A stretch of DNA of 64,000 nt from an uncultured virus (IMG/VR IMGVR_UViG_3300033149_003138) (IMGVR_UViG_3300033149_003138); one strand, 5' to 3'. Positions 11,272 to 47,079 are shown, counted from the stretch's first letter. Notes: generated by a model from the letters alone, not told the origin. Made by a program: numbers and translations.

Positions 11272-11667
11272 ATGGGCAAAAAAAGAAGGTCTCCCAAACC
11301 TCATAGGGTTAGGACTAAAGACCCAAGATACAACATCAACGGATATAACAGAGGCAAATCCATTTTCTTCGAATCCAAGTACAGGAAATACTCAGAAATG
11401 ATCAGGATTGACACACTTTCTACCGCCAAGGACTCTATTAAAAGGGTTCTTGATGAGTTTGAATCCGCTAAACAGCCAACCAAAATGAGAAGGCTGATCT
11501 CTGAGGCGAACTGTGCAAGTAACAGGGCTATGATCGCATCCAAGAACCCACGAAACAGTCCAGAAGAGAGAAAAGAGAGTGCAGAAGTCGCAAAACTGTG
11601 GAGGAAGGCACAGCAAACTCTCAGCCGTAAGTACGAGACAAGAAAAAAGAAGAGAAAACGTAGATAG
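11272..11667 (+). CDS. HPRY-leader protein 1 (basic, helical cargo)
   Basis: N-terminus MGKKRRSPKPHRVRTKDPRYNINGYNRG. Confidence 0.8.
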   Translation: MGKKRRSPKPHRVRTKDPRYNINGYNRGKSIFFESKYRKYSEMIRIDTLSTAKDSIKRVLDEFESAKQPTKMRRLISEANCASNRAMIASKNPRNSPEERKESAEVAKLWRKAQQTLSRKYETRKKKRKRR

Positions 11668-11707
11668 CCCACCAAATCATACACAGTCCCACCATTAAGT
11701 GACGAAA

Positions 11708-11757
11708 CGATTCATATTGTATCGGAAAACCTCTTATAGTTTCGTTGCCTTCATCTC
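11708..11757 (+). promoter_or_regulatory. 17-bp palindrome variant followed by class A promoter
   Basis: CGATTCATATTGTATCG (11708-11724), then CTCTTATAGTTTCGTTGCCTTCATCTC. Confidence 0.7.
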
Positions 11758-11769
11758 TCCTAGATAAAC

Positions 11770-12594
11770 ATGCAGAAGAGAAAAGGGTCTTCTGACGCAC
11801 TTATACTCGTTTTCTCCCTGCTCTTGATCGGTGCTGTAGTTTTCTACATGAGAGGTGGAAATATCGGAGTAACACAGGGAACGGGTGAAGGAACATCTTT
11901 GCCCTTCAACCTCAAGTTACCCGACTTTAACATCATTGTAAACGTGCCTGAGCAAGACGATGACACTCCAAGTGACCAAGATACTCCTCCACCCCCACCG
12001 CCTCCAGACGGCAACCCGCAGGACTACAAGGTGCCTACTTCACTTACGGTCTTTATTTCACCCAACCCAGTAAATAGAGGAGACTTCTTTATAGGAGACT
12101 GCATCAGCAATGGCTACAACACAGAGGTAACTTTGTATGCCAAACACAAGGGATCAGGTGAAACCGTCTCCTTCGGTGGTTGGCTTGGGGATGATGGTAA
12201 ATTTCAGCACGTACAACAAATCAACGTCGCAGGATACTGGGAGTTCTGGGCTACAGCCGATAACGGTAAAGTCGAGAGCAACCACGCCACCCTCACGGTT
12301 CAAGGTTTCCACATCTTGCAGGATGGACATGTAAGCATGTCCCTTGATCCCACTCAGATCATAAGGGTTTATAGCCACATGTCTGGTAATGTTCAACTGA
12401 TAGCCATAGATCACGCAATGGGCATGAGCATACCCCTGACATCCACTTCGATAAACTCAGGTGGTTTCGGAGATGTCCTTGTGGACTTCTCAGGAAGGGG
12501 GATGACTGGAGACTACGAGTTAGAGGCTATCCACTCAAACGGTCAAACCGCTAGTGGCTGGGATGGAACTAGCTGGGTACATCTAGGGAGGTAA
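11770..12594 (+). CDS. N-terminally anchored membrane protein with Ig-like domains
   Basis: N-terminal TM, poly-Pro linker, beta-rich domains (ISPNPV...YWEFWATA). Confidence 0.7.
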   Translation: MQKRKGSSDALILVFSLLLIGAVVFYMRGGNIGVTQGTGEGTSLPFNLKLPDFNIIVNVPEQDDDTPSDQDTPPPPPPPDGNPQDYKVPTSLTVFISPNPVNRGDFFIGDCISNGYNTEVTLYAKHKGSGETVSFGGWLGDDGKFQHVQQINVAGYWEFWATADNGKVESNHATLTVQGFHILQDGHVSMSLDPTQIIRVYSHMSGNVQLIAIDHAMGMSIPLTSTSINSGGFGDVLVDFSGRGMTGDYELEAIHSNGQTASGWDGTSWVHLGR

Positions 12595-12599
12595 GAAAA

Positions 12600-13733
12600 G
12601 TGCCAAGGAAGAGAAGATCGCCATATGAACATACGGTACATACCAAACATCCACGTTATAATGTACATCAATATCCAAGAGGTGTTGGTGAACCTCCTCC
12701 TCCTGCACCAAGACGTGACAGCAGATCAATTCGAGGTAGAAGCCTAATAACAAGGGAGGGTGTAACGAAGACAGCCCACGCATGGAGGATCGATGACAGC
12801 CTAAGCCCCAACAGGAAACACGTCTTCGATGAGAAGAACCGTGAGTGGCAGGTGCTTCATAACAGGAGAGACGTGCTGACCATAGACCACCCCTCAAACA
12901 GGGATGTTGTCTTGAAACTCTTGAAACAGGATTTGTCTATCGAAAGAAGGAATCTTCGATACGCTGAGAAAAGGAAACAGGCTGTCGAGAGGCGTATAAG
13001 CAGAGAAGGACACAGCCCTGCAACTAGGAACGCTATGAGGACAGTCAACAATCAGATAAAGCAATACCAGAATAACATAACGGCAATCGAAAAAAGAATG
13101 GAAAAACGAATCAAAGGTAAGCCAATAATCGTCAAGACTCCCAAAAAAAGGAAACCTGCTACCCCTAGACCAAAGAAAAACAAGAACCAGCTTGTAGGTC
13201 ACACCACACAGGAGACTGCCTATGTCATTGAGGACTATCCTTATGGAAGGAAACTCAGAACCAAGATGCGTATCTGGGTAGAGACCAGCAAGAAACACGG
13301 TCAAAGAGTGGTCAAACAAACACTCAACCCCAAGACAGGAAAATGGAATAAACCCAAGAAAAGCACCTATTCCCAGTTGGTATTGCTGGAGAAAGAGAAA
13401 AAGGCTGATGGTAGAGTATTCGTCAAAGATAAACACATCAACGTGAGAAGTGACACCACGCTAGATGACTTGAAAGAAATCGAGAAAACCTATGACTTAG
13501 ACGAAAACCAGCAGGATATACTTAAACGCCTCATGGTTGGCGTGAACGCTAGAAAGTACATCAAGTTTACTGCAACAACAACTAAGGTGGACTATGGAGA
13601 CCCAGACTTCAGGGTGAAGATGAAGAAACTGGAGAAAGAGGAAAAGACTCTAAAAGAGAGAAACAAGGAAATCCTTGATCAAGCCATAGGGATGAGCCAC
13701 AGGGAGTTAAAAAACAAAGACATCATTGAGTAG
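12600..13733 (+). CDS. HPRY-leader protein 2 (coiled coil + DYPYG...WNKPKKSTY domain)
   Basis: MPRKRRSPYEHTVHTKHPRYNVHQYPRG leader. Confidence 0.8.
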   Translation: MPRKRRSPYEHTVHTKHPRYNVHQYPRGVGEPPPPAPRRDSRSIRGRSLITREGVTKTAHAWRIDDSLSPNRKHVFDEKNREWQVLHNRRDVLTIDHPSNRDVVLKLLKQDLSIERRNLRYAEKRKQAVERRISREGHSPATRNAMRTVNNQIKQYQNNITAIEKRMEKRIKGKPIIVKTPKKRKPATPRPKKNKNQLVGHTTQETAYVIEDYPYGRKLRTKMRIWVETSKKHGQRVVKQTLNPKTGKWNKPKKSTYSQLVLLEKEKKADGRVFVKDKHINVRSDTTLDDLKEIEKTYDLDENQQDILKRLMVGVNARKYIKFTATTTKVDYGDPDFRVKMKKLEKEEKTLKERNKEILDQAIGMSHRELKNKDIIE

Positions 13734-13735
13734 CA

Positions 13736-14083
13736 ATGAACATCTCAAGGAACCCCACCAATTACCTTATCCCTCTTTTCATCTTATTATTTCTGGTAGC
13801 GGGTGGGGGATACCTTCTGCTGGGGGACTTCTACCAGCGTAAAGAAATGACCGTTGACATCTGGTACGTTGAAGAGATCACAGACCCATACACCGAATCA
13901 GGCACAGCGATTCAACTCACTTACAAAGACAGATTTTTCGGAGACAAAGTTCTCCTACTGAAGAAAACAGACCTGTCCAGTGGACTGACTAAAGGCAAGT
14001 TTCATCTTACGCTTGAGACACATGATAAGATGTTCAAAAGAACTAAGCCGTGGGAACTCGTTGACGCTGTGAGACTGGGTTGA
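13736..14083 (+). CDS. Membrane-anchored small protein
   Basis: N-terminal TM helix. Confidence 0.6.
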   Translation: MNISRNPTNYLIPLFILLFLVAGGGYLLLGDFYQRKEMTVDIWYVEEITDPYTESGTAIQLTYKDRFFGDKVLLLKKTDLSSGLTKGKFHLTLETHDKMFKRTKPWELVDAVRLG

Positions 14084-14449: not shown

Positions 14450-14530
14450 TATAAAAAACTCGATCTCACACCCCATACACTAGAATCTCTGAGACCCAAT
14501 AATTTATTTATTTTTACCAATATGGCGATA

Positions 14531-14593
14531 TGGTATCTAATACCATAAACCTTTTATATGATACACATTGTATCACATCTGAGTAAGTATGGC
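14531..14593 (+). promoter_or_regulatory. Class B promoter
   Basis: TGGTATCTAATACCATAAACCTTTTATATGATACACATTGTATCA...GAGTAAGTATGGC. Confidence 0.8.
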
Positions 14594-28417: not shown

Positions 28418-28591
28418 TTGTATCAAAAACCAAAGGACTACTTTAAGATTGAAAAAAGAATACATCTGTTCTTTATCGGTCTAGCGATGATCTTCATGGT
28501 TTTAGGTGAAAAAAAGGGAATATTCTTAACTGCCTTCATGGACTTTGGCGTTCTCTGCATCTACTACTGGGGGATCAGAAAAGATAAATAG
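28418..28591 (+). CDS. Small two-TM membrane protein (not in ORF track)
   Basis: TTG start inside palindrome 28409-28425; MYQKPKDYFKIEKRIHLFFIGLAMIFMVLGEKKGIFLTAFMDFGVLCIYYWGIRKDK. Confidence 0.5.
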   Translation: MYQKPKDYFKIEKRIHLFFIGLAMIFMVLGEKKGIFLTAFMDFGVLCIYYWGIRKDK

Positions 28592-28610
28592 TTTTGGTGC
28601 CTTCATCTCC
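28583..28610 (+). promoter_or_regulatory. Class A promoter
   Basis: GATAAATAGTTTTGGTGCCTTCATCTCC. Confidence 0.75.
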
Positions 28611-30270: not shown

Positions 30271-30304
30271 CGATAATCTCTTATAGTTTTGGTGCCTTCA
30301 TCTC
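30271..30304 (+). promoter_or_regulatory. Class A promoter
   Basis: CGATAATCTCTTATAGTTTTGGTGCCTTCATCTC. Confidence 0.8.
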
Positions 30305-30311: not shown

Positions 30312-31241
30312 ATGTCGTTAAAGAAGAAAGACATTAACACTTACGGTTATCTGTTCATTGCATTGGCTCTTGCTATCTTCATAGGTGGTATGGGGCTAAC
30401 AATGGTAAAAGATGAAAGCCACACAGTAACGGTTTATCGTGGATACACCATCTATAAGGCACCAGATGACACACTTCCCCCCAATCCTCAAGACCTTGGT
30501 GGAGATTATTACTACGCTAAGCATTACTGGAATGATCCTCAGCAAACACTTCAAGACATATACGACTTTATTGATGATGAAATAGCTAAATCACCGAAAT
30601 GTGTGGTACACTTTACAGTTCAGAAAAGAGTCATAACAGACCATGGTGATGGACACCGATCTAGGGACTATTACGGTCTCCAAGATGTTGGTGTCTTCCT
30701 ATACCGTGATGGTGAAAAAGCAATATTCGAAAGTCAAAGAACAGATCAAGATGGAGTAGCATATTTTGACAGTGTACCTGTAGGAGAATACGACTTTACC
30801 GTGGTCACAACGGGGTACGAAAAAAGCAACGTGAACACTCAAAACTGGGTTGAGGAAGGAACCATCTACTACAAGAGAATAATCCTTTACGAGGAAACAA
30901 TATACGAGAACACTGACACCACGGAAGACACGACTGACACCACTGAAGAACCTCCGTCTGATCCACCACCTGACACAACTTCCGACGGCGATCCAGTGAA
31001 TGAACTTGATCAAGCCCTTTTTGATGAAGATAACGAGGTAACTGACGAATACCCTGAAGATGCTGAGTTTGAAGAAGAATGGAAGGCACCTTGGGAGGGA
31101 GGAGGGCAGGAACAGCTAACGGGTAGCTACGATCAACACTATGATGAAGGATTCAACATGATGACTCTAGCTGTAGGCGTTCTTGGAACCACAGGTATAT
31201 TGATGCTACTCTTTGCCCAGATGTTCACGAGGAAGAGATAA
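30312..31241 (+). CDS. Membrane protein with carboxypeptidase-regulatory-like (CnaB-type) domain
   Basis: TM at both ends; TDQDGVAYFDSVPVGEYDFTVVTTGYE; acidic stalk. Confidence 0.7.
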   Translation: MSLKKKDINTYGYLFIALALAIFIGGMGLTMVKDESHTVTVYRGYTIYKAPDDTLPPNPQDLGGDYYYAKHYWNDPQQTLQDIYDFIDDEIAKSPKCVVHFTVQKRVITDHGDGHRSRDYYGLQDVGVFLYRDGEKAIFESQRTDQDGVAYFDSVPVGEYDFTVVTTGYEKSNVNTQNWVEEGTIYYKRIILYEETIYENTDTTEDTTDTTEEPPSDPPPDTTSDGDPVNELDQALFDEDNEVTDEYPEDAEFEEEWKAPWEGGGQEQLTGSYDQHYDEGFNMMTLAVGVLGTTGILMLLFAQMFTRKR

Positions 31242-31885
31242 TGAGAAGAAAATCCCCACGAAAGCATACCGTTCATACGAAGCACCCTAGATACAATGTA
31301 CCCCAGTATCCAAGAGGCTCTGATGGGTTTCCACTTCCTTCTAGCCCAACCGAAAAAGAAAGACAGAAACCGAGGGGATTCTGGGAAGAAAGATACTACA
31401 GCCTATTCACCCAGCCTCCACCCTATCGAGAACCTGAAAACCTGAAATATGTTCCAGAAGAACAGTGGCAATATGCCTATTTTTGTGAAAAATCTGGAAG
31501 AGGCTCTGAAAACGCACTTAGATACATTGACCCCACGACAACCGCTACACCGATGTTTGACAACATGCTTGAGAATCCAGACTACTTCCTAAAGAATAAG
31601 GGGAAGTCCTTTGAGATAATCTGGATGTCCCCTCAAAGATACTTTGAAACATGTGCCAAGAATAGAACAGAATACTCAGGAGAATACGCCTCTGCACGAA
31701 ACGAGAGAGAAATGGTAAATGATGAACTTGCTAGAAAATACGCTAACATGATGGAAGGGGGGACATACTTCCCAATGCCAAACATAGATGAGTTTGGAGG
31801 TCAAGAAGGCAGACACAGGGCTAGGGCACTGGAGATGCTTGGCGTAAAACGATTCCCCGTTATGAGAATAAGACAGGTCTCATGA
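31241..31885 (+). CDS. HPRY-leader protein 4 with ParB/sulfiredoxin-like domain
   Basis: Leader MRRKSPRKHTVHTKHPRYNVPQYPRG; C-terminal QEGRHRARALEMLGVKRFPV. Confidence 0.75.
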   Translation: MRRKSPRKHTVHTKHPRYNVPQYPRGSDGFPLPSSPTEKERQKPRGFWEERYYSLFTQPPPYREPENLKYVPEEQWQYAYFCEKSGRGSENALRYIDPTTTATPMFDNMLENPDYFLKNKGKSFEIIWMSPQRYFETCAKNRTEYSGEYASARNEREMVNDELARKYANMMEGGTYFPMPNIDEFGGQEGRHRARALEMLGVKRFPVMRIRQVS

Positions 31886-31901: not shown

Positions 31902-33296
31902 ATGGGTAAGAAAAGGAAAAGCCCCAAACGTCACACAGTCCATACAAAGCACCCACGGTACAGGGTGCCACGGTATCCTAGAGGCTCTGATCTACCTCCT
32001 GCCTCCCCCAGCTTGCGTTCTTCACCTCAGAAAAGGGATATTCGTGCTGAGATGCTTGCTCATCAGAGAGGCATGGGAAGGCGTGGGGTTAAGTCAAGGT
32101 TTTCCAGAAGACAGGTTGTGCGTGTTCACCGTGATAGATCACCCAAGGCTAAGGAGGTTGATGAGAGTCTACAGGCAAGAGTGACTGACGATTACAATGT
32201 ATGGATGAGAGACCCAAACAGGTACGATGTCTATGGTGTAGACTATTTTCCTGTTCCTGTGAAGGAGGGAGACCTTGACTGGAATTACAGGGCAATCGAA
32301 GAATCCATGAGAGACTATTATCAGATGGATGACAAGAAGCATCCTAGACCTAAGCCTGTGTTCCATACTGATGGGGCTTCTTATGAGAGGGCTTTTGGCA
32401 GTCCTGCTGTGCCACACGCCTTCTATGAAGGAGAAACCAATGAGATTCACTTTTCCCCCCGAGCAACACGGTTGTTGAGGGAAGGTAAAATCTCGAATAA
32501 AGAGGACTTATGGGCTTTCAAGACTGTGGTTCATGAATATGAACATGCTAGAGGTTCAACGAGAAAGAATACTGGTTCTGCCTTTGATGAAGGTTCAACA
32601 GAGTTGTTAGCTGAGAGATACGCATACATGGCTTTGCAGATGCCTCCAAAACTCAGAGAGGAACTTAAAGAAACATCTTCACCTGCCTATACTGCGTCAA
32701 CATACTCTGTGGCTTCAGTGGCTTTAATTGTCAATGACTACAAGGATGAAAAGGCTATAGAGTGGCTGAAAGACCTTAGAACCGCTACACCGAGAAAACA
32801 GAAATCCATAATACAAAAAGCTGAAGATAAGCTGATAAAAGCTAAAGTGATTCCTGACAACCGAACACTGAGGAAAAAAATCAAGCGTTATGAAAAGAAA
32901 TCTCAGGAATATTGGGACAAAGCGGATAAACTTCGATCTAATGACGAAGAGGGGTCGTTAAGAAAACTTCTTGGGTATCGTGGTGTTGACGATGGGGGTG
33001 TCTTAGATGTTAGCACTGGTCTACCCGATGAAGAAGCATTAGGAGAAATGCCTTGGCTTAAACCCTACGCTGACAAGTTCGTTAGATTACGGACTGAACG
33101 AAAGGAAGCTATAGAAAAGGCTCACGAAAACAGGAAAAAGGCAGATAAATTGAAGGAGAACATAAAAGACCCAGACATCTTCACAGCAAGCCATAAAGAC
33201 ATAGATCAAGAATCCCTTGCATTCAAAGAGCCTTATTTCAAAGTCATCAAAGTCAAAGGAGCAGATTATTCAGGTAGATGGTGGATTGACGTATGA
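31902..33296 (+). CDS. HPRY-leader protein 5 with zincin metallopeptidase-like domain
   Basis: Leader; HAFY...TVVHEYEHA...FDEGSTELLA. Confidence 0.75.
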   Translation: MGKKRKSPKRHTVHTKHPRYRVPRYPRGSDLPPASPSLRSSPQKRDIRAEMLAHQRGMGRRGVKSRFSRRQVVRVHRDRSPKAKEVDESLQARVTDDYNVWMRDPNRYDVYGVDYFPVPVKEGDLDWNYRAIEESMRDYYQMDDKKHPRPKPVFHTDGASYERAFGSPAVPHAFYEGETNEIHFSPRATRLLREGKISNKEDLWAFKTVVHEYEHARGSTRKNTGSAFDEGSTELLAERYAYMALQMPPKLREELKETSSPAYTASTYSVASVALIVNDYKDEKAIEWLKDLRTATPRKQKSIIQKAEDKLIKAKVIPDNRTLRKKIKRYEKKSQEYWDKADKLRSNDEEGSLRKLLGYRGVDDGGVLDVSTGLPDEEALGEMPWLKPYADKFVRLRTERKEAIEKAHENRKKADKLKENIKDPDIFTASHKDIDQESLAFKEPYFKVIKVKGADYSGRWWIDV

Positions 33297-33829
33297 AACG
33301 AAGAACGCCTGTACAACACACAGTAAAGACTAAGCACCCACGCTACAAAGTTCCAAAATATATCAGGGGTCTAGGAACCAGATCAATACAGACTTGGAGA
33401 GTGTACAAGTCATACCCAAATACCCCCGTGGAATACTTTGGCTATACAAGAGACCCAAATCAGGCTCTCTGGATAACGATTGACGGTAGGCTGATAAGTG
33501 GTTCAAAAAACAACAAAAATCCGTGGAGTGACTATCAGCACGCTGACATTGTGAATGCCTATGGTTATCCAAGTTCAGACGTTGAGGCAAGGATTTGGCA
33601 GAAAAGTACAGGTGCTATTCGTATGCGAAGATCGAGTATGTCACCTGACGCTACTCTTAACATAGAACTATATCAAAGACCAACACCCGCCCAGATAAGG
33701 GCAATATCCAAAGCTGTAGGCAGGGAAGGAACCATTTACGTTGACTATTGGGATGAAAGTGGCAACCCAAAAATCAGCCGTAGAGTCAGGAACGCAGGTG
33801 AACTGAAAAGGATGCTTGATTACGCATGA
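33293..33829 (+). CDS. HPRY-leader protein 6
   Basis: MKRRTPVQHTVKTKHPRYKVPKYIRG. Confidence 0.8.
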   Translation: MKRRTPVQHTVKTKHPRYKVPKYIRGLGTRSIQTWRVYKSYPNTPVEYFGYTRDPNQALWITIDGRLISGSKNNKNPWSDYQHADIVNAYGYPSSDVEARIWQKSTGAIRMRRSSMSPDATLNIELYQRPTPAQIRAISKAVGREGTIYVDYWDESGNPKISRRVRNAGELKRMLDYA

Positions 33830-34761
33830 AACGTCAAATCAACTACCCTTCAAAAAGGAAGCCTCCTAGAAAACACGTTGTAAAAACGAAACACCCACGA
33901 TATGTTATACCAAAATACACGAGAGGAAAAGGGTTCCTTCCCTCTAAAACTGTTAAAAGAATAGAGGGTGGAAAATTCATTCACTATGATGACCCGAACC
34001 TATCTCAAGAAGAAAAAATCAGAAGACAACAGAGTGTAATCAGGCTTTTAATGAGAACAGTACCAGATCGTAACCACGGAGAATTTAACCAGATAGTCAT
34101 CGGTGAATACTATGATGGTAAGCGAATAAAATCAATGGGTGTCGCACACCCAGCAGGTGTCATGCAATTACACCCTAACCTAGTTGACATGTACTTTGAG
34201 CCAACAACCGACACATCTCACATCAGCCTCAGCAATACAATATTACATGAATACGGTCACTATGACTATTGGTTTGGACTGGATGAAGACTCAAAGACAG
34301 AGTGGAAAAGATGGTACAACGAGGACTACGCTAAACAAGGTCACAAGTACCCTCTAGGTGCAAGGCTATCTTATGGAACTATAATTGACCCAAAAAGCAG
34401 TTACAGGGAGGCATACGCCGAGGCGTATGCTTTCTATAATAGTCCAAGCAAGAGACAGAGAGAGGGGTTCAAAGAACTTCATCCAGAAATCTATGAGAAA
34501 TTCAAAGAACTATCTAAAATTAAACCAAAGCCCCCGATAAAAAACTATGACAACCATCTCTCAAAAATGACTGGGCAAAAGAAATACAGAAGATTTAACA
34601 AGAAGAAATTTGAGTTAGAGAAAGCGAACTTGGATAAAGAAGCACTAAAACATTTCAAGAAGAACTGGACTCGATACCGTTCAAGAAGGTCAGTGAAATA
34701 CCGTGATCCCAAGGGTAGAGAAAGATACGCTATATACGCGGAGGTTCTAACCAGACCATGA
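33826..34761 (+). CDS. HPRY-leader protein 7 with zincin metallopeptidase domain
   Basis: Leader; TILHEYGHYDY...SY...REAYAEAYAFY...FKELHPEIY. Confidence 0.8.
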   Translation: MKRQINYPSKRKPPRKHVVKTKHPRYVIPKYTRGKGFLPSKTVKRIEGGKFIHYDDPNLSQEEKIRRQQSVIRLLMRTVPDRNHGEFNQIVIGEYYDGKRIKSMGVAHPAGVMQLHPNLVDMYFEPTTDTSHISLSNTILHEYGHYDYWFGLDEDSKTEWKRWYNEDYAKQGHKYPLGARLSYGTIIDPKSSYREAYAEAYAFYNSPSKRQREGFKELHPEIYEKFKELSKIKPKPPIKNYDNHLSKMTGQKKYRRFNKKKFELEKANLDKEALKHFKKNWTRYRSRRSVKYRDPKGRERYAIYAEVLTRP

Positions 34762-35105
34762 CTAGAAGGCACACAGTTCGCACCAAGCATCCACGGTACA
34801 AAGTCCCAGCCTATGAGAGGGGAGGCAAAAGGCTGGGGTTTCTTCCTCCTGAACGTGTAGAGTTTCCTTTAAATGATCCGATTGAGGCAGAAGCCTCTGT
34901 AAACAGGATTGACGAATACTGGGACAAGTCTAACCCCATAGAGCAAGAGGTAATGCTTGAGTCCCTGAAGCAAGGTGCTATAAAAACCAAGGGACTTCTT
35001 GAGGGAAGAGAGATCACAGACCCACAGGAACAGATGAGGGTCTACAAGTCGTACTTGATATATGCAAACGCCTATCAAGCATTTTCAACCCGAATGCTCA
35101 CATAA
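34758..35105 (+). CDS. HPRY-leader protein 8
   Basis: MTRRHTVRTKHPRYKVPAYERG. Confidence 0.75.
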   Translation: MTRRHTVRTKHPRYKVPAYERGGKRLGFLPPERVEFPLNDPIEAEASVNRIDEYWDKSNPIEQEVMLESLKQGAIKTKGLLEGREITDPQEQMRVYKSYLIYANAYQAFSTRMLT

Positions 35106-38191: not shown

Positions 38192-38509
38192 ATGATTTTC
38201 AACGATGATCACGTTGCACAGATATTCGAGGGTACAAAGACTCAGACTCGAAGGGAATCAAACAGATACATTGTAGGAAGAGAATATGCGATCCAGAGAG
38301 GAAGAGGCAAAAAGTCTGAGGGCAGGATTCTTATAGTCAGGAAGTGGGTGGAGACAAATCCATATGACAAGATCAGCGTTGAGGATGCTAAGGCAGAGGG
38401 AGGATACCTACCAGTTGACTACGAAATTCTCTATAACGAGATGCACCCAAACTGGGTTGAACGATACTGTTACGAGTTTAAAATCACAAAGTTGGCTAAC
38501 TGGGAATGA
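38192..38509 (+). CDS. ASCH domain protein
   Basis: IFEGTKTQTRR...ISVEDAKAEG. Confidence 0.75.
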   Translation: MIFNDDHVAQIFEGTKTQTRRESNRYIVGREYAIQRGRGKKSEGRILIVRKWVETNPYDKISVEDAKAEGGYLPVDYEILYNEMHPNWVERYCYEFKITKLANWE

Positions 38510-40080: not shown

Positions 40081-40114
40081 CAATAATCTCTTATAGTTTT
40101 GGTGCCTTCATCTC
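40081..40114 (+). promoter_or_regulatory. Class A promoter
   Basis: CAATAATCTCTTATAGTTTTGGTGCCTTCATCTC. Confidence 0.8.
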
Positions 40115-40126: not shown

Positions 40127-41191
40127 ATGGGTAAGAGGCGTTCCCCCCATCGGCACAATGTTCACACCAAACACCCCAGATACAATGTGAATCAGTATAG
40201 TCGTGGTATTGGACTGCCTTCAAACAAACTTATCGAAAGCAGGGAACTTTACAATCTACAGGATAAGTGGCTTGAACACTACTATTTCGGAGATAGAAAT
40301 AGCAGAAACTATCTTGATAACAAAGACCGTAGTAAAATACATGAACACACTATGGATGCAATGAGAGAGTTATCTAAGACTCACTCAGGCTCAGGATACG
40401 TTTACGAAAAGCTGGATAGGATCGAATCAATATATCTGGATGACTATCTCCTCTGGAAGCATTCAAAATCTGGATACCGTCCTTCAGCCAAATACTTCGA
40501 TTTCTTAAGTTTAACCGATAACGATAAAAGGATAATGGCTAAATGGAGGGACTTAGAGAACAGGCACCTCAGACCTAAATATAATGAAATCACAGACCCG
40601 CTTAGAAGAAACGCAATAATCGACTTGATGAATTTAGCTATCATCGAATCAAGAGACAAGCCTGACTTGGATGAGTTTGTACACGGATACTTAAAGGCAA
40701 GAGATTCAATTAACGCATACTTCTACAGCACTAAGAAGCTGTCCAATCAACATGTGCTAAGAGAGTATGGAACCAACCCAAAACACCTTTCTGAAAAACA
40801 AAGAATAAACGTGCTTCTCTTATCGATGAAAGAACGGATGCTTGCAGAAGACTTAGGATACAGTTATTTTGAGCCACTGGTCTACTCCAAGAAGGAACGT
40901 CTATCCCAGTTATCCGAAAACTGGTCTGAAACGGCTGATCGAATTAAAGAAATCCATTATGAAAACAAAAACGCATTTAAAGTCAAAAGAGAACAGGAAG
41001 AAGCTGTCTATGACTTTTATTATGATAGAATCCATCGCGCAAACTCCAATGCAAGTCTTGTACTAATCCAGAACGAGTTTGAGAATGACCCTAGAGTATC
41101 TTCTGAAATGGATCAAGACTTCAAAAAATACATCCGTAAAATAAGGTCTGAAAAAGGATTCTACCCAAACCCTCCCGATAATCTCTTATAG
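40127..41191 (+). CDS. HPRY-leader protein 9
   Basis: MGKRRSPHRHNVHTKHPRYNVNQYSRG; its stop codon is the TAG within the next promoter. Confidence 0.8.
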   Translation: MGKRRSPHRHNVHTKHPRYNVNQYSRGIGLPSNKLIESRELYNLQDKWLEHYYFGDRNSRNYLDNKDRSKIHEHTMDAMRELSKTHSGSGYVYEKLDRIESIYLDDYLLWKHSKSGYRPSAKYFDFLSLTDNDKRIMAKWRDLENRHLRPKYNEITDPLRRNAIIDLMNLAIIESRDKPDLDEFVHGYLKARDSINAYFYSTKKLSNQHVLREYGTNPKHLSEKQRINVLLLSMKERMLAEDLGYSYFEPLVYSKKERLSQLSENWSETADRIKEIHYENKNAFKVKREQEEAVYDFYYDRIHRANSNASLVLIQNEFENDPRVSSEMDQDFKKYIRKIRSEKGFYPNPPDNLL

Positions 41192-41222
41192 TTTCGGTGC
41201 CTTCATCTCCTTGTAGATAGCT
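41176..41222 (+). promoter_or_regulatory. Class A promoter
   Basis: CGATAATCTCTTATAGTTTCGGTGCCTTCATCTCCTTGTAGATAGCT. Confidence 0.8.
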
Positions 41223-41969
41223 ATGGGCAAAAGAAGATCACATAGCATTAATTACCCCTCCAAAAGGAAACGCCCAATAAAACATACTGTACACACCGTA
41301 CACCCTAGATACCAAACCCCTGTCTATTCACGGGGATCAAGAATACCAACCACGCCTAGAGAAACAAAGGCTTTCACAAGAAATGTTAAGAAATTCATTA
41401 GAAACTCAGAAACCAATCAGATAACGGGATTAGCCAAAGTAGAAGATGTTCAGAAGGTCTTCGGTAAGAAGGCTGTAAGAGACATCATCCTATCTGGTGA
41501 AGCATACTGCCCACGACCCAACTTCATCAAGGTGACTGATTCAGCTTCAAACTCAATATTTGGTGAAGACCATGACAAAGTAGTGAAAATGGCTCATGAA
41601 TCGAAGACATTTAATGACTTTGGCAGAGCCTTCATAAAGTATTTCTACGATCCATCAAGAAGTGCAAAGGATGTAAAGATTGGAGAAGTGATTAAATTCA
41701 CACCTCCTAAAAGTGCAGGTGGATACTACGACAGGAAACCTTGGTATGGAAGTGAACGCCTAAGACAATACAATGATTCTTCAGTAAGTGGTAGAGTCAC
41801 GAAAATAAACCCTAAAAGCATCAAGATCGTTCAAGACTTTGAACCTGATTCATGGAACTATAGACATGAATATAAAGTGCCAAAAGACGCAAGAGCCTCC
41901 AGAGATTTAGGAAAATTCTTGGGAAAAGATGAGGCATGGCTTAAAAGAACCTACAACAAATACCACTAA
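41223..41969 (+). CDS. HPRY-leader protein 10
   Basis: MGKRRSHSINYPSKRKRPIKHTVHTVHPRYQTPVYSRG; KOW/SH3-like 'GRVTKINPKSIKI'. Confidence 0.8.
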   Translation: MGKRRSHSINYPSKRKRPIKHTVHTVHPRYQTPVYSRGSRIPTTPRETKAFTRNVKKFIRNSETNQITGLAKVEDVQKVFGKKAVRDIILSGEAYCPRPNFIKVTDSASNSIFGEDHDKVVKMAHESKTFNDFGRAFIKYFYDPSRSAKDVKIGEVIKFTPPKSAGGYYDRKPWYGSERLRQYNDSSVSGRVTKINPKSIKIVQDFEPDSWNYRHEYKVPKDARASRDLGKFLGKDEAWLKRTYNKYH

Positions 41970-42014: not shown

Positions 42015-42109
42015 ACCGATAATCTCTTATAGTTTTGGTGCCTTCATCTCCTTGTAGATGGCTATGGGCAGGAAAAGAAAAAGCCCAAGAAAACACAGCG
42101 TTCATACAA
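42015..42109 (+). repeat. Class A promoter + leader cassette, copy 1 of a 95-bp near-identical repeat
   Basis: 93/95 identical to 43855-43949. Confidence 0.85.
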
Positions 42110-42579
42110 AACATCCACGTTACAACGTCAAGAAGTACGAGAGAGGTCAAAGATGTGAATACCCTTCTGGTTCTCTGAGAAACAGTCAATCACCAAAAAT
42201 CTACTTCCCCAATCAAACTCTATCCGACTTTAAGGAAGGAGACCTTGTTGGGGTCTGGGAGATAAACAAGTCAGGAACATGGTATCTCTGGAGAGGCTGG
42301 AAGATCGATAAGATACTCCCCAGTGGCACAATCATCATGACCAACTCAGCACAGAGGCTAGGGCAGGTAAGATGGTATGGTGGGGAGAACTTAGCCAAAC
42401 GAATGGTTAAGATGTCACGAAAAGATCATCTCTACGACTATTTCAAATATTGGATATACATATACCATGACCCCAAAAAGTTAGATAAACTTTCTAAACA
42501 AATCTCCTACTCAGACCTGCCTGAAGAAGACAAGAAGACCCTGTATGAACACATCAGGGTAAAGACAGGTGTAATGTAA
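42064..42579 (+). CDS. HPRY-leader protein 11
   Basis: MGRKRKSPRKHSVHTKHPRYNVKKYERG. Confidence 0.8.
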   Translation: MGRKRKSPRKHSVHTKHPRYNVKKYERGQRCEYPSGSLRNSQSPKIYFPNQTLSDFKEGDLVGVWEINKSGTWYLWRGWKIDKILPSGTIIMTNSAQRLGQVRWYGGENLAKRMVKMSRKDHLYDYFKYWIYIYHDPKKLDKLSKQISYSDLPEEDKKTLYEHIRVKTGVM

Positions 42580-43259
42580 TGACAAAGAAGCGCAAACCTC
42601 CAAAACGCCACACGGTTCAGACAAAGCACCCTCGATATAATTTACCTGAATACCTGAGAGGTAGGGGTGGACAAGGATCGTGTGGCGGTACACCTTTGAG
42701 GGATGGATCAGGTGGGGGGGTGGGAAACATTGTAAACCCCAAAAAAACATCTGAATCAAGAAGCCCCAACTATGATGTAATCAGGGACATATATGCGTTA
42801 AGTTCTGGTACTATGGCTACTATTACAGGTAAAAGAAAATACACTGAAATTAATGAGGAGATAAATAAGTTTGCCAAATTTGTTGAAAAATCTTTCATCA
42901 AGTTCGATTCTTGGCAAGATGCTTGGGACTGGTATAGTAGACCACGTTCAAACAAGCGTCTACAGAAGTCAATCCAGACCCCCGATAAGATAATCTTCAG
43001 AGGAAAAATCTACACTTGGGCTGGTTCAAACTATGGTTATGATAACAAAGAAGTCGCAAAAAAAATGGCTAAAAGCGATAGACGGGTTGGCAAGAAGTCT
43101 ATCATTAGAACCATTACAGGCACAAACCCGCCCTATAAGGGAAAGAAATGGTACGTGGTCTACTCAAGACACACACCCAAATCCATCAAAAGACTCTACT
43201 CTGATGAGAGAGTACAACGTGAACGGATAGCTTGGATGAAGAAAGAGGGGCTTGTCTAA
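42579..43259 (+). CDS. HPRY-leader protein 12
   Basis: MTKKRKPPKRHTVQTKHPRYNLPEYLRG; cargo paralogous to 43904. Confidence 0.8.
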   Translation: MTKKRKPPKRHTVQTKHPRYNLPEYLRGRGGQGSCGGTPLRDGSGGGVGNIVNPKKTSESRSPNYDVIRDIYALSSGTMATITGKRKYTEINEEINKFAKFVEKSFIKFDSWQDAWDWYSRPRSNKRLQKSIQTPDKIIFRGKIYTWAGSNYGYDNKEVAKKMAKSDRRVGKKSIIRTITGTNPPYKGKKWYVVYSRHTPKSIKRLYSDERVQRERIAWMKKEGLV

Positions 43260-43837
43260 TGGGCAGGAAGAAACCAGTCAAACACACGGTTCACACGAGG
43301 CACCCCCGATACAACGTCCCTCAATATCCTAGAGGATCAGATAAAGGAAAAACTAGAAAAACAGCGTCTTTACACCCGTTATCAAATAATAAAATAAAAC
43401 ACTTTTCTGAATGGGATGGTACAAGAAGAACCTATAGAGCCGAATACATACTTAAAAGATATAACCCTAAAACAGCGAAAGAGATCGCTAAAATATTATA
43501 TGAAGGGATGAACCAAGAATGTAAAACGATTTATGATGTTCAATATCCAATGTTTCTTAAAGATAAAAATTTAGTCAAGTATGTCACGGAATCAAGACCA
43601 GAATCCCCAGATTGGCACAACTACTACATAACACATGTTGATATGGTAGATATTAACGCAGACTTATGGAAACTGTCACCTACGTTACGAAAGAGATACC
43701 CATCTAAAAAGAAAATGTTCATGGGCACTGATATAGGGGCAGGATGGCATAACCAAATGAAGGACGTAAGCAAAGAAATATCTCGATTAAGGAAGAAAGA
43801 TGAACGAAAAGGAATAAAAAAGAAGATATTAATTTAA
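43259..43837 (+). CDS. HPRY-leader protein 13
   Basis: MGRKKPVKHTVHTRHPRYNVPQYPRG; TAATG coupling to the upstream gene. Confidence 0.8.
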   Translation: MGRKKPVKHTVHTRHPRYNVPQYPRGSDKGKTRKTASLHPLSNNKIKHFSEWDGTRRTYRAEYILKRYNPKTAKEIAKILYEGMNQECKTIYDVQYPMFLKDKNLVKYVTESRPESPDWHNYYITHVDMVDINADLWKLSPTLRKRYPSKKKMFMGTDIGAGWHNQMKDVSKEISRLRKKDERKGIKKKILI

Positions 43838-43854: not shown

Positions 43855-43949
43855 ACCGATAATCTCATATAGTTTTGGTGCCTTCATCTCCTTGTAGATA
43901 GCTATGGGCAGGAAAAGAAAAAGCCCAAGAAAACACAGCGTTCATACAA
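43855..43949 (+). repeat. Class A promoter + leader cassette, copy 2
   Basis: 93/95 identical to 42015-42109. Confidence 0.85.
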
Positions 43950-44254
43950 GGCACCCTAGATACAACGTCCTTGAATACTTAAGGGGTAAGAGAGGCAGAG
44001 GATCGTGTGGAGGGACACCACGGTTTGATGGCTCTGGTGGTGGAATAGGTAACAGACAAAACGCCAAGGTCATCCACGACGCATACAACCTCAGCAGTGG
44101 AACGATGGCTACTCTAACGGGTAAAAAGAAGTATAGTGAACTAGACAAAATTCAAAACGACTTTGCCCAGTGGGTCGAAGGCTCTCCCAGAGACTTCAAC
44201 ACATGGCAAGAGGCATGGAGAGCCTATGAAAAGGAAACTGGGGGTAACTACTAA
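43904..44254 (+). CDS. HPRY-leader protein 14
   Basis: MGRKRKSPRKHSVHTRHPRYNVLEYLRG. Confidence 0.8.
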   Translation: MGRKRKSPRKHSVHTRHPRYNVLEYLRGKRGRGSCGGTPRFDGSGGGIGNRQNAKVIHDAYNLSSGTMATLTGKKKYSELDKIQNDFAQWVEGSPRDFNTWQEAWRAYEKETGGNY

Positions 44255-45015
44255 TGGGGAGAAAGCGCAGAAGTCCACGTCGGCACACCGTCCACACGAA
44301 GCACCCCCGATACAATGTGAATCGGTACGGTAGGGGTGTTGAGGGTCATAGCGGTGAGAAGCTGAGAAAACGCATCCAAAAGTCTGCTCTATCTGGATAT
44401 GATTCTAAATACTATGAAAAAGTTCAAAACCCGTTATTCCCTGACAGAAGTTTCATTCATGTGAAACCGTATCTCAGTGGGAGAAGAACTATCTCCTACC
44501 AGTGGGAGAAGATAATTGCAGACAAAACCTTGTGGAAGGACTTGCTGAGGAGCAAGGGATTCAAAAAGGTAGCATCGTCACCTGATGGGAAATCGGATAT
44601 AATCTACCGTAACCCACAGGATATGTACATCATCGTTCAGAGAGAACACGATGTTGACTTCCCAGAAAAAGGTGGGGTTGATCTTGGGTACGTGAGATTC
44701 GATGCACACCCTGATCTACACGAAAGGCTATGCACCCTTGTTAATGACTTCAGAGGAATGGGAAAAGTACCAGAGTTTGACATCGATTACATTGCACAGA
44801 GAGAGCCGAGAGTGAGAAGAGGCATTTTATTCTGGTCTAAAGACGGGGAAACCCAGCCTTCCGCTACTGATTTCAAGCCTGTCAGTTTACAGATGGAGGA
44901 CTTGCAGAAACAGAAGAACCGTATAAAAAGTTCCTCTAAAAACGATGCTGAAAAGAGATTCTATACTAACATGATTAACGCAAAGATAAAAGCACTCAAA
45001 GACGTAAGGAATTGA
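44254..45015 (+). CDS. HPRY-leader protein 15
   Basis: MGRKRRSPRRHTVHTKHPRYNVNRYGRG. Confidence 0.8.
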   Translation: MGRKRRSPRRHTVHTKHPRYNVNRYGRGVEGHSGEKLRKRIQKSALSGYDSKYYEKVQNPLFPDRSFIHVKPYLSGRRTISYQWEKIIADKTLWKDLLRSKGFKKVASSPDGKSDIIYRNPQDMYIIVQREHDVDFPEKGGVDLGYVRFDAHPDLHERLCTLVNDFRGMGKVPEFDIDYIAQREPRVRRGILFWSKDGETQPSATDFKPVSLQMEDLQKQKNRIKSSSKNDAEKRFYTNMINAKIKALKDVRN

Positions 45016-45338
45016 TGACAATGGGTAAGAAACGTAAAAACCCCAAACCCCACACTGTTCACACGAAGCACCCACGTTATAATGTGCCTAAGTATTCAAG
45101 AGGTAGTGGTACTGTACTGAATAAAGACTCCATCAGTCAAGAAGTTTCCGACTCATCCTCTGAGGTGGGTGTCAGATATTTGAAGCCCCCTGAAGAGAGA
45201 AACCCCTATTCCCCTTTCTATACTATGCAAAAATGTAGAAAATGTGGCTACAGGGGATATGCTGAGGAATTTAAAGGTACCATGCGATTGACATGCCCTA
45301 AATGTGGTGCAAGAGGGTATATCGACATTCTCAATTAA
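45015..45338 (+). CDS. HPRY-leader protein 16 with Zn ribbon
   Basis: MGKKRKNPKPHTVHTKHPRYNVPKYSRG; CRKCG...CPKCG. Confidence 0.8.
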   Translation: MTMGKKRKNPKPHTVHTKHPRYNVPKYSRGSGTVLNKDSISQEVSDSSSEVGVRYLKPPEERNPYSPFYTMQKCRKCGYRGYAEEFKGTMRLTCPKCGARGYIDILN

Positions 45339-45456
45339 TTTCATCCTATAGTTATTCTCATTTTTTGACAGGCAAATATTATACATATGTCACCCCCTGT
45401 AATGTCCTATGGGAATCGGACAAAATCGGAGTCCGTTTTACTAGGGGTTTTTCTGG

Positions 45457-46380
45457 ATGAATCCGACGAATGAAGCAAAGATAATGCGCCTCTTCGAGAG
45501 GGACAACAGAGACTATACAGCCTATGAAATAGCTTATTCAGCCAAAATAAGCAAAAATAGCGTTTATTCCACACTCACTAGAATGATAAGAAAAGGGCTG
45601 GTAAGACGCGTAGAACGTGGAATATATCGTGCAAATCCCACCATAGGGGTGGGTGATATTTCTGAGCCTATGAGGATTCAGAACATCAGACTTGTCAGCC
45701 GAAAAATGGATGGGAAGTCGATTGAGCCTCCTTCTTGGCTGGATTATAAGCCTTTTGTGGGTTATGTTCATGAGTTGGAGTTGTTGGGGCTGGGGAGGAC
45801 TGAGGAGGATAAGGTTCGGCTGAGGTTTCAGATTGGTAGTAAACGAGCCAAGTTGACTTTCACGGTGAAGGCACCTCTGGGGCTGGATTTATATGGGTTT
45901 CAGTTTGCTTTGCAGTGGCTCTATGATCGTCTTGATCAGTATGGTTTCTCGGGGGATGTTCACTGGATTGTGGATCGTGGGACTGAGATGTTCAAGGATT
46001 ATCCTAATGTGGATTTGGATGCTCTGGGGTCTAAGGCGATTACTCTTGGTGAGTTTAATGGTTGGGTTGAGAAAATTTATCAGAAGGCTTACGGGATGAG
46101 GCGTGAGTTGAAGCTGGATCATCAGACTAGCCTTGACGCTATTATGGCTGTCACTATGGGTGGTTTCAGTGCTGGGCAGGTGTTGAACATGAATGCTTTG
46201 GCTATCAGGGAGATGGAGAAAAGCAACAGGGCTTTGAAGTCTTGGAGTGTTGGTGCTTCTGAGACTCAGAGGGCACTTCAGGATATGATGCCCCCTTTCA
46301 TGAATGCGATCTATAAGATTATAGATAAAATTGATGATATTTCACGTAGGATGACGCGTCTGGAGGATAAGCTGGATTGA
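45457..46380 (+). CDS. Winged-helix (TrmB-like HTH) protein with unknown C-terminal domain
   Basis: TAYEIAYSAKISKNSVYSTLTRMIRKGLVRRVERGIY; C-terminal coiled coil. Confidence 0.7.
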   Translation: MNPTNEAKIMRLFERDNRDYTAYEIAYSAKISKNSVYSTLTRMIRKGLVRRVERGIYRANPTIGVGDISEPMRIQNIRLVSRKMDGKSIEPPSWLDYKPFVGYVHELELLGLGRTEEDKVRLRFQIGSKRAKLTFTVKAPLGLDLYGFQFALQWLYDRLDQYGFSGDVHWIVDRGTEMFKDYPNVDLDALGSKAITLGEFNGWVEKIYQKAYGMRRELKLDHQTSLDAIMAVTMGGFSAGQVLNMNALAIREMEKSNRALKSWSVGASETQRALQDMMPPFMNAIYKIIDKIDDISRRMTRLEDKLD

Positions 46381-46637
46381 GTCTGGGTGACTTCACTGGT
46401 GCTGAGGATAACTCTGATAGGGAGCAACTTGATGTGACTTTTATCGGAAAGTATAAGGGCTACGGTATCTTTCTTCACCCGCTATATGGATACCAGATTA
46501 CTAGGATGGATGAGCCGAACCTGATCAACGTGGGCATACACATCCATGATATTGAAGTAGCACATATATTCATTGACGAACTGCCTGAGCCACCCAGCTT
46601 CTATGATAAACTTCTAAGCAAACCCAATAGAGACTGA
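46377..46637 (+). CDS. Hypothetical protein
   Basis: 86 aa; its 3' end is duplicated at ~47084-47148. Confidence 0.55.
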   Translation: MSLGDFTGAEDNSDREQLDVTFIGKYKGYGIFLHPLYGYQITRMDEPNLINVGIHIHDIEVAHIFIDELPEPPSFYDKLLSKPNRD

Positions 46638-46690
46638 TTCAACTTGTATCAGCTTACCAATAATTTTTTATAGTTTTGGTGCCTTCATCT
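46570..46690 (+). repeat. Imperfect ~120-bp direct repeat, left copy (gene 3' end + 17-bp palindrome + class A promoter)
   Basis: TCATTGACGAACT...TGATTCAACTTGTATCAGCTTACC...TTATAGTTTTGGTGCCTTCATCT; recurs at 47084-47200. Confidence 0.8.
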
Positions 46691-46695
46691 CTATT

Positions 46696-47079
46696 ATGGG
46701 TAGGAAGCGTAAGTCCCCAGTCAAACATACGGTTCATACGAAGCATCCTCGATATAACGTGCCTCAGTATCCTAGAGGCTCTGGATTTCCCCCTGTTTCT
46801 CAAGTTAAGCGTCGCGACACGGACTCCTTTATTCGTTATGTTAAAACACAGGTTATAGACGTATTACAGCCTTTTTACGTTGTTTTCAATAACCCGAAAG
46901 TGGGGGACATACCTGTAAACGCTGACGATTATAGTGGGGCACGCTATCTTCTAAGCTATTATGAACCTGATCAGCCTAATGCTATAAATAATGTATTTTA
47001 TGACCCATATCATAACGTGGTTGTAGAGTATAGTGATGATTGGTCTCATTCTACTGAATGGAAAGACCTCAATCTCTAA
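46696..47079 (+). CDS. HPRY-leader protein 17
   Basis: MGRKRKSPVKHTVHTKHPRYNVPQYPRG. Confidence 0.8.
   Translation: MGRKRKSPVKHTVHTKHPRYNVPQYPRGSGFPPVSQVKRRDTDSFIRYVKTQVIDVLQPFYVVFNNPKVGDIPVNADDYSGARYLLSYYEPDQPNAINNVFYDPYHNVVVEYSDDWSHSTEWKDLNL

Follow-up and report, generated by a model that had tools for sequence, protein, structure and literature searches.

A candidate N-terminal address tag on seventeen mostly unrelated, co-regulated proteins of an uncultured virus-like element

Why would a mobile element place the same peptide at the start of many proteins that otherwise look unrelated? The question is raised by IMGVR_UViG_3300033149_003138, an uncultured virus of the IMG/VR database, of which a stretch of 64,000 nucleotides (nt) was analysed (hereafter the window) and in which open reading frames (ORFs) spanning 11272..47079 begin with a basic leader of about 28 residues. 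A first, sequence-only reading had proposed that this leader is a modular address label, through which an exchangeable set of effectors is loaded for delivery. To our knowledge, the way in which archaeal viruses choose the proteins that travel with their genome is essentially unknown, and most sediment archaea have no cultured model. Here, we report a promoter shared by nine transcription units, a family of 108 proteins carrying the leader at their N-terminus, syntenic relatives with multiple leader copies, and the basic, cysteine-poor character of the bodies behind the leader, all of which are new. Tentatively, we regard the leader as a lineage-specific, modular N-terminal address or docking tag that would gather a co-regulated set of proteins, likely on the DNA core or particle of the element.

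The existence of seventeen leader copies is confirmed. In a six-frame scan of the window, P-R-Y...Y-x-R-G sites were found 17 times, exclusively on the + strand and always at the ORFs named in the sequence-only reading (leader genes of Table 1), and the stricter pattern PRY-x4-Y-x-RG, likewise present 17 times in the window, was seen in none of 200 base shuffles and in none of 200 residue shuffles of the translated + strand. Since the first invariant His lies 4–20 codons past the start codon and an in-frame stop is encountered at most 39 codons upstream in 17/17 ORFs, the leader is truly N-terminal. In the alignment of the 17 leaders (A1), H11, V13, T15, P18, R19, Y20, Y25, R27 and G28 are invariant, as had been claimed for the PRY and YxRG positions, and R5, P8 and H17 are nearly so, the core of the window set being H-x-V-x-T-x-x-P-R-Y-x4-Y-x-R-G. 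The literal start M-G-[RK]-K-R-K-S-P attributed to all copies is less uniform than had been described: the leaders of 33826 and 41223 bear an extra basic ‘..NYP..’ extension, that of 34758 has M-T-R-R alone before the His (i.e., it lacks the KRKSP part), and 12600 begins with a GTG codon. The genes were also said to be clustered and translationally coupled, and indeed their coordinates give eight gene junctions that overlap by 1 or 4 nt.

Synonymous codons are scrambled between copies, which argues that selection acts on the peptide and not on the DNA. Over the 18-codon core of the 17 leaders, mean pairwise identity amounts to 0.78, 0.83 and 0.38 at codon positions 1, 2 and 3, respectively, identical residues use the same codon in only 40% of the cases, and each invariant residue is encoded by 2–5 synonymous codons, with Arg19 drawing five codons from both Arg codon families. 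The earlier remark that codons differ between most copies is therefore accurate. Only one pair of heads, those of 42064 and 43904 (86% identity over 139 nt, promoter included; family D4), looks recently homogenised.

The leader defines a family well beyond the window. When 1.84 billion representative proteins were searched with the hidden Markov model (HMM) profile of A1, 108 were recovered at E ≤ 0.001 (17 of them at E ≤ 1e-10), including 11 of the window’s own, and the profile match starts at residues 1–15 in every one of them. H, V, R and G are found at fixed spacing in 108/108 proteins, Arg19 in 106, Tyr20 in 107 and Tyr25 in 106, while position 17 is occupied by H in 69 of them and by D in 29. 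The part that precedes the His varies from 3 to 24 residues and is made of 48% Arg+Lys and 14% Pro; on average, the leader has a net charge of +7.6 and hardly any acidic residue. In the 15 residues past RG, Gly, Ser and Pro reach 11%, 11% and 8.5%, against 6%, 6% and 4% in the bodies. Loose BLAST linking sorts these bodies into 51 groups and stricter linking into 58, of which 45 are singletons; two larger BLAST groups hold 20 and 17 of the 108. Behind the leader, NTP_transf_2/Polbeta (P0077) and DUF7678 (P0012), both singletons, exceed the Pfam cut-offs, and WLM (P0013) and SprT-like (P0020) matches lie below them.

None of the Pfam matches reported for the 108 proteins falls within the leader. 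The motif neither coincides with a known Pfam domain nor sits internally in a family member, two findings that the sequence-only reading had named as telling against its proposal. In IMG/VR, we retrieved no locus with the leader profile, none with a degenerate DNA pattern of the core and no relative of the 31241 body, and GenBank phage records contain no match for the leader or for the ATPase of the element (see below). In GTDB, sampled at one genome per species, the leader was not found beyond two loci, both treated as chance (L001, an internal partial match without Y-x-R-G, and L002, without an HMM match). The matches listed by a literature search for ‘HPRY’ are unrelated to the leader, and the available parts of a Bathyarchaeia-virus preprint and of a 2026 Asgard-virome paper speak of no comparable leader. 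With no counterpart in Pfam, PHROGs, GenBank phages, IMG/VR or the GTDB species genomes, the leader looks undescribed, as had been suspected.

Relatives of the element do exist among Joint Genome Institute (JGI) metagenome contigs, where 14 loci were found, eight of them with at least two leader genes within 1.2–14 kilobases (kb); the other ORFs of these multi-leader loci match window genes. The expectation that matches would be N-terminal, present in several copies in related elements and missing from reference genomes is thus borne out for the genomes scanned. In one locus (L013; 14 kb of a 48-kb contig), gene order is colinear with window positions 29320-39108, with two membrane proteins, a ParB-like leader gene (69% identity), a zincin and a small leader gene, along with homologues of 35242, 39291 and 38506. 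The leader is generally kept by the orthologues of a given body across elements. In the family of 31241, six of ten non-window sequences have a recognisable leader, the other four being two variants without P-R-Y, one degenerate form and one N-terminally truncated sequence; four-residue insertions occur in the L013 members of both this family and the 31902 family, in the latter between R-Y and Y-x-R-G. In the two variants, which together with the degenerate form are P0233, P0236 and P0234, H-P-R-Y is swapped for N-G-K or E-G-K plus two extra residues, so that the leader family extends beyond what the profile search reveals.

The leader proteins of the window measure 107–464 amino acids (aa), of which 75 to ~435 residues follow the leader, and among the 136 body pairs, a relation at E < 0.01 (BLASTP or phmmer) is seen for 42579/43904 alone; at the sequence level, the description of the bodies as unrelated cargo is therefore correct. 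Sixteen of the 17 have no match in Pfam, the zinc-ribbon matches of 45015 (E 4e-5) falling short of the curated cut-off, and none of the 17 is matched in PHROGs. Likewise, the stated lack of any transmembrane segment or hydrophobic signal withstands scrutiny: with a 19-residue window and a Kyte-Doolittle threshold of 1.6, a hydrophobic segment appears in one of the 108 family members and in none from the window. Compared to the other 87 ORFs, the bodies are more basic (median isoelectric point 9.4 vs 6.7; Mann–Whitney p=0.002) and poorer in Cys (0.62% vs 1.87%; p=0.0004), even though five of the 17 are neutral or acidic. The body family of 12600 is widespread among relatives, and ESM Atlas yielded no usable match for the 12600 protein itself.

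The domain labels initially given to some bodies (a zinc ribbon, a ParB/Srx-like domain and two zincins) each receive partial backing, the first below cut-off and the others as motifs with weak fold matches. For 31241, an AlphaFold2 model built from 11 sequences reaches a predicted local distance difference test score (pLDDT) of ~90 in the body from residue 45 on. Pfam has no match for this body and Foldseek returns nothing at E ≤ 0.001 for the model, while VIA-align against representative structures gives 10 chains at Z ≥ 2, nine of which are of ParB/Srx type (sulfiredoxins, free serine kinase, Osa, PadC, SbnI, Atu1540, pNOB8 ParB-N, KorB), the best being sulfiredoxin 6ky4 (Z 5.2, root-mean-square deviation 3.3 Å, 75 aligned residues). 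Because of these matches and of QEGRHRARALE, invariant in 7/7 family members, a ParB/Srx-like fold is a reasonable but not proven assignment. In the 31902 family, H211, E212, H215, F228, D229, E230, G231 and E234 are invariant in 7/7 orthologues, and the model (mean pLDDT 62.8) has a strand-helix topology at 125-244 (pLDDT 65-88) around the HExxH helix; Foldseek lists only weak minigluzincin rows (4jix, probability 0.38; 4qhi, 0.28), and the VIA-align list for the 464-aa model is filled by a coiled-coil hairpin (319-426), hence uninformative on the catalytic core. A complex prediction of the HExxH core (95-335, alignment A5) with the leader (A1), run without a control, scored 0.00 and is informative neither way. 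The zincin label of 33826 is based on its HEYGH motif only.

Past its variable coiled coil, the 31902 family (A5; window 33275-33296) also displays a conserved C-terminus, W-W-[ILV]-[DN]-[DV], which could be a second docking motif.

The leader genes are further united by a promoter. The 22-mer TATAGTTTTGGTGCCTTCATCT is present in nine window copies at up to 3 mismatches, against 0 expected, and lies 5-14 nt (median ~13) upstream of an ATG in 9/9 cases. All nine units headed by these copies contain leader genes, and conversely all 17 leader genes are located within the nine units, where the only other genes are 11770, 13736, 29320 and 30312; an N-terminal membrane anchor is found in all four of the latter, and an acidic stalk with a C-terminal membrane segment in two. 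In relatives, the promoter was recovered at nine sites on five contigs, before leader genes and a 30312 homologue, with the consensus ATAAyCTCTTATAkTTTTGdTGCCTTCATCTC; there, the ATG is ~22 nt past the TATA-like box, the window copies having 8–14 extra bases. As archaeal TATA boxes are usually centred near -26, the spacing in relatives implies that transcription would start at the ATG, and the first genes of the regulon would yield leaderless or near-leaderless mRNAs. Seven of the 17 leaders stand directly behind the promoter and ten belong to internal genes, several of which, on reading by eye, are preceded by GGAGG-like sites. Archaea commonly pair leaderless first genes with internal genes that have Shine-Dalgarno sites, and both the promoter and the translation signals of the window appear to be of archaeal type.

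Table 1. Promoter copies, leader genes and other genes of the leader regulon in the window (positions in nt).
Feature	Position	Strand	Description
Promoter copy 1	11238..11259	+	TATA-like box and conserved TGCCTTCATCT block; heads 11272 (leader)
Promoter copy 2	11735..11756	+	heads 11770 (membrane protein), 12600 (leader), 13736 (membrane protein)
Promoter copy 3	28587..28608	+	heads 28621 (leader), 29320 (membrane protein)
Promoter copy 4	30282..30303	+	heads 30312 (membrane protein) and five leader genes (31241-35105)
Promoter copy 5	40092..40113	+	heads 40127 (leader)
Promoter copy 6	41187..41208	+	heads 41223 (leader)
Promoter copy 7	42028..42049	+	heads three leader genes
Promoter copy 8	43868..43889	+	heads three leader genes
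Promoter copy 9	46669..46690	+	heads 46696 (leader)
Leader gene 1	11272..11667	+	131 aa; first after promoter copy 1; sole copy with D17
Leader gene 2	12600..13733	+	377 aa; GTG start, GGGAGG ribosome-binding site; L008 69% identity
Leader gene 3	28621..29316	+	231 aa; L004 71% identity
Leader gene 4	31241..31885	+	214 aa; ParB/Srx-like body, GxQEGRHRARALE motif
Leader gene 5	31902..33296	+	464 aa; HEYEH...FDEGxxE putative metalloprotease; coiled coil; WW-x-D-V C-terminus
Leader gene 6	33293..33829	+	178 aa; L014 56% identity
Leader gene 7	33826..34761	+	311 aa; HEYGH motif; leader with N-terminal ‘..NYP..’ extension
Leader gene 8	34758..35105	+	115 aa; short leader form without KRKSP
Leader gene 9	40127..41191	+	354 aa
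Leader gene 10	41223..41969	+	248 aa; extended leader
Leader gene 11	42064..42579	+	171 aa
Leader gene 12	42579..43259	+	226 aa; body paralogous to 43904 body
Leader gene 13	43259..43837	+	192 aa
Leader gene 14	43904..44254	+	116 aa; body paralogous to 42579 body
Leader gene 15	44254..45015	+	253 aa
Leader gene 16	45015..45338	+	107 aa; four-Cys zinc-ribbon body
Leader gene 17	46696..47079	+	127 aa; acidic body
Non-leader regulon gene	11770..12594	+	N-terminal membrane anchor, Pro-rich stalk, beta-rich domain
Non-leader regulon gene	13736..14083	+	small protein, N-terminal anchor
Non-leader regulon gene	29320..30270	+	membrane segments at N- and C-terminus, acidic stalk
Non-leader regulon gene	30312..31241	+	N- and C-terminal membrane segments; weak CarboxypepD_reg/SdrD-B matches; L013 homologue 42% identical

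A second promoter class occurs in the window, in which a GGTATCTAATACC palindrome lies just upstream of a TTTTATAT/TTTTAAAT box and of a conserved GATACA...TGTATCA inverted repeat (at about 3970-4026, 14527-14593, 16130-16170 and 23004-23070), looser copies preceding 14174, 21056, 24342, 35242, 47613 and 53324. This architecture suggests a separate operator-controlled regulon, and since it heads other genes, the leader genes form a regulon of their own. In addition, a tenth, degenerate copy of the leader-regulon promoter at 47168-47230 has no ORF behind it and is followed by ~380 nt of GC-richer, ORF-poor sequence, of which 47270-47560 folds as RNA with z = -2.5 and has no Rfam match; Rfam found no family anywhere in the 64-kb window. 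The region 47168-47610 may therefore correspond to a non-coding RNA under the leader-regulon promoter.

How can these observations be put together? In the reading that we tentatively prefer, the tag would be composed of a variable-length polybasic run, a fixed core of 18 residues (H-x-V-x-T/P-K/R-H/D-P-R-Y-x4-Y-x-R-G) and a Gly/Ser/Pro-enriched stretch acting as a flexible linker. The element would place this tag on many unrelated, mostly basic and Cys-poor proteins and use a single dedicated archaeal promoter to express them along with a few proteins anchored in the membrane, and one common partner reading the fixed core would bring the whole set to one place. That conservation is positional and not merely compositional points to one specific reader, and the fixed core, the linker, the unrelated bodies, the retention by orthologues, the N-terminal placement and the private promoter lead us to favour a tag with a common partner over a basic tail or decayed paralogues. 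As the bodies are basic and several belong to DNA-linked families, a DNA–protein core, or else the particle of a virus-like element, would be the most economical destination. Finally, two HExxH proteins themselves bear the leader and would travel with the set; given the invariant Y-x-R-G end, removal of the tag at this motif by such co-localised proteases is a natural guess.

Several points weigh against this scheme. The leader is modelled with little confidence (ParB-like model, pLDDT ~60; zincin model, <50), no partner is known for it, and basic bodies behind a start resembling S-P-[KR]-[KR] are just as compatible with plain DNA binding. Neither Pfam nor PHROGs nor NCBIfam detects a capsid, portal, scaffold or prohead protease in the 64-kb window, beyond which about a third or more of the element lies, and the sole virus-linked gene is a HerA/FtsK-type ATPase whose matches to HerA, B204 and a terminase PHROG are weak. 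The lineage being absent from IMG/VR and GenBank phages, the element could be a plasmid-like replicon devoid of particles. As for cleavage, the zincin assignment of 31902 is a weak, motif-level call, this body having no Foldseek match at E ≤ 0.001 and no Pfam match at E ≤ 5. Of the original address-label proposal, the part that stands is a separate N-terminal module maintained by peptide-level selection on unrelated bodies, whereas the particle into which it would load them finds no counterpart among the capsid, scaffold, portal and prohead protease genes looked for in the window. We consider as rather doubtful a bolder version in which a ~90-kb virus-like lineage, possibly of Asgard (Thor-) archaea, would use promoter and 28-residue tag to load at least 50 kinds of enzymes and binders into a particle or onto the genome for delivery to the next cell, with co-loaded metalloproteases clipping at Y-x-R-G.

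Other explanations need neither a particle nor, in some cases, a partner. The leader might itself be a nucleic-acid-binding arm that parks enzymes on the DNA of the element or of the host, using its polybasic S-P-K/R-K/R-like run, Arg and Tyr contacts and an R-G-x-G end. The strong positive charge shared by leader and bodies agrees with this, as do the nucleic-acid-linked bodies (ParB/Srx-like fold, sub-cut-off WLM and SprT-like, NTP_transf_2, zinc ribbons) and the 3–24-residue spread of the polybasic part, which is what electrostatic binding predicts. Yet non-specific DNA-binding tails normally keep their composition and not exact positions, while H11, V13, R27 and G28 are fixed in 108/108 proteins and R19, Y20 and Y25 in at least 106; considering moreover the five neutral or acidic bodies and the lack of any known DNA-binding family matching the leader, we hold such a tether to be unlikely. 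Alternatively, as a short linear motif, the leader could dock its bearers onto a machine of the host or the element other than a particle, be it an apparatus for export or transfer that might be coupled to the HerA/FtsK-type ATPase and to the membrane proteins of the regulon, a compartment or condensate for replication, a chaperone or a protease. All the other proteins of the regulon are membrane-anchored, a HerA/FtsK superfamily ATPase is encoded nearby, the conserved Arg and Tyr residues would lend themselves to multivalent contacts, and the window offers no visible capsid gene. This possibility is nevertheless quite unlikely in our view: the leader is missing from all 70 IMG/VR loci that encode a homologous ATPase (i.e., the ATPase does not co-occur with it), and neither a hydrophobic signal nor a candidate receptor was identified.

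It is also conceivable that the leader sorts nothing, either because it is a slowly evolving piece of an old duplicated family or because it has a local function, such as stability or autoinhibition. One body pair is clearly paralogous (42579/43904), BLAST links 20 and 17 of the 108 bodies, and body profiles and structures were compared for two models only, which leaves room for remote homology. Common descent of the bodies is nonetheless hard to reconcile with lengths ranging from 75 to ~435 residues past the leader, with folds and domains as different as ParB/Srx-like, HExxH helix topology, zinc ribbon, NTP_transf_2 and DUF7678, and with a Gly/Ser/Pro-enriched linker between leader and body, so that we judge this option highly improbable. 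Conservation at the nucleic-acid level, whether as a 5′ coding element for leaderless mRNA translation or as a recombination cassette, could draw on the seven leaders directly behind the promoter and on the near-identical heads of 42064 and 43904. It is barely credible and largely refuted, however, by the scrambled third codon positions and the five Arg19 codons reported above, as well as by the ten internal leader genes, several with their own GGAGG-like sites.

A number of more specific roles were considered and rejected: N-myristoylation (Gly2 in 24/108 only), a PPxY-type late domain (Pro23 in 11/17 only) and a three-His metal site (His at position 14 in 76/108 and at position 17 in 69/108). 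The same applies to a Sec, Tat or archaeal class III (pilin-type) signal peptide, for which the hydrophobic core is absent, and to a bacterial microcompartment encapsulation peptide, the leader having 3-4 prolines and no helix (short strands or a 3-residue helix in AlphaFold2, pLDDT ≤ 60). Nor does the locus resemble a polymorphic toxin system, the leader genes abutting or overlapping one another without small immunity ORFs in between.

It is instructive to set the tag that we tentatively favour beside known systems. Internal proteins of phage T4 carry a capsid targeting sequence (CTS) that is removed by the prohead protease gp21. By function, and as far as the available parts of the sources go, the T4 CTS and the cleaved ejection proteins of giant phages such as SPN3US (PMC9026906, PMC9958956, PMC5694885) are nearest to the leader, along with the encapsulin peptides discussed below. 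Like the leader, the CTS is a short N-terminal peptide common to unrelated co-expressed proteins, and the likeness might extend to a protease belonging to the tagged set and to the invariant end motif as cutting site. In contrast, the leader has no sequence likeness to the CTS, which it exceeds by far in length and conservation, is strongly basic, belongs to an archaeal setting, is known from genes alone, and is accompanied in the 64-kb window by no detected prohead, scaffold or S78/U9-type protease. The cargo-loading peptides of encapsulins, according to the available parts of two sources (PMC8346489, PMC11664910), are also short conserved terminal tags on a flexible linker, direct diverse enzymes to one protein shell and can be transferred between cargo types; unlike the leader, they sit mostly at the C-terminus, are hydrophobic or rich in Gly, and have an HK97-fold shell gene as neighbour. 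The leader is polybasic, and Pfam, PHROGs and NCBIfam, searched with no structure-level ORF comparison, give no encapsulin or HK97 match in the window. As the defining companions of these two systems (prohead scaffold and protease; HK97-fold shell) were not found, we do not file the leader as a member of either.

Adenovirus and African swine fever virus (ASFV)-like viruses make basic core-protein precursors that are clipped at Gly-Gly-type sites by clan CE cysteine proteases. Here too, an Arg/Lys-rich terminal segment ends in a small-residue motif on proteins that would accompany the genome, and clipping might be carried out by proteins of the element, but the leader has Y-x-R-G as its end motif and HExxH proteins as sole protease candidates. 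Lastly, polymorphic toxins and sets of the ribosomally synthesized and post-translationally modified peptide (RiPP) type combine a constant leader with a variable body. The tandem copies, constant N-terminus and hypervariable C-terminal parts of the window genes recall such sets, whereas immunity genes are missing between copies, the bodies are folded and 75-435 aa long instead of being short core peptides, and no modifying enzyme with a RiPP recognition element (RRE) or secretion domain was seen here.

The remaining genes hint at the nature of the element. All called genes of the 64 kb are on the + strand and no transfer RNA is present. Recognisable products include a topoisomerase-like protein (phrog_6247, E 9e-71; 32-38% identical to phage ORFs annotated as ‘DNA topoisomerase’), a ParB protein with a helix-turn-helix domain, an N6/N4 DNA methyltransferase, and TrmB/IclR-type and other winged-helix regulators. 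There are also several family-2 glycosyltransferases (20183-23005 and 27310-27915) and radical S-adenosylmethionine (SAM)-type proteins (35844-36596, 25162-26337 and 60685-61173), the first of which has a CxxxCxxC motif and follows the main leader operon directly. The 866-aa product of 215-2815 combines a high density of N-x-S/T sequons with an acidic stalk, a single membrane helix at the C-terminus and a basic tail, and in this resembles a glycosylated protein of the surface or envelope.

The P-loop ATPase (54594-56351) belongs to the HerA/FtsK superfamily, with a long coiled coil and a C-terminal domain, and its best relatives of solved structure are HerA (profile E 7e-4) and the packaging NTPase B204 of Sulfolobus turreted icosahedral virus (STIV; E 0.097); it also matches a terminase PHROG (E 2e-9). 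It has hundreds of relatives in sediment metagenomes, and of the 586 scored relatives, some come from bins labelled Thorarchaeota or Bathyarchaeia by their depositors, and the same Thorarchaeota bin prefix is borne by an orthologue of 31902; through these labels, a Thorarchaeota host is perhaps hinted at. In IMG/VR, an alignment query retrieved 70 loci on contigs of ~8-140 kb with 26-43% identical ATPases (a single-protein query gave nothing), which otherwise have almost nothing in common with the window, and tblastn found any match for only four other window ORFs. The ATPase gene may be the hallmark of a group of archaeal elements that is both broad and undescribed. Proteins identical to those of the window occur on contigs of up to 93,986 bp, and relatives occur on contigs of 58,755, 92,735 and 109,486 bp. 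Altogether, we infer a large archaeal virus-like or plasmid-like element; its lineage being absent from IMG/VR, even the word ‘virus’ has to be used conditionally.

From a functional perspective, the leader provides a sharply defined handle for searches, with its 18-residue core, a promoter that goes with it and 108 proteins as representatives, and it marks a co-regulated set of proteins in an unstudied lineage. Were it an address label, candidates for delivered or core proteins would become identifiable by sequence alone, a conserved receptor and possibly a new protease specificity would be predicted, and the leader could be reused as a portable cargo-loading tag. Should it turn out to be a DNA-binding arm instead, it would represent a new and unusually position-specific nucleic-acid-binding peptide. 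If the loading and delivery reading is true, archaeal mobile elements would have gained their first defined sorting signal.

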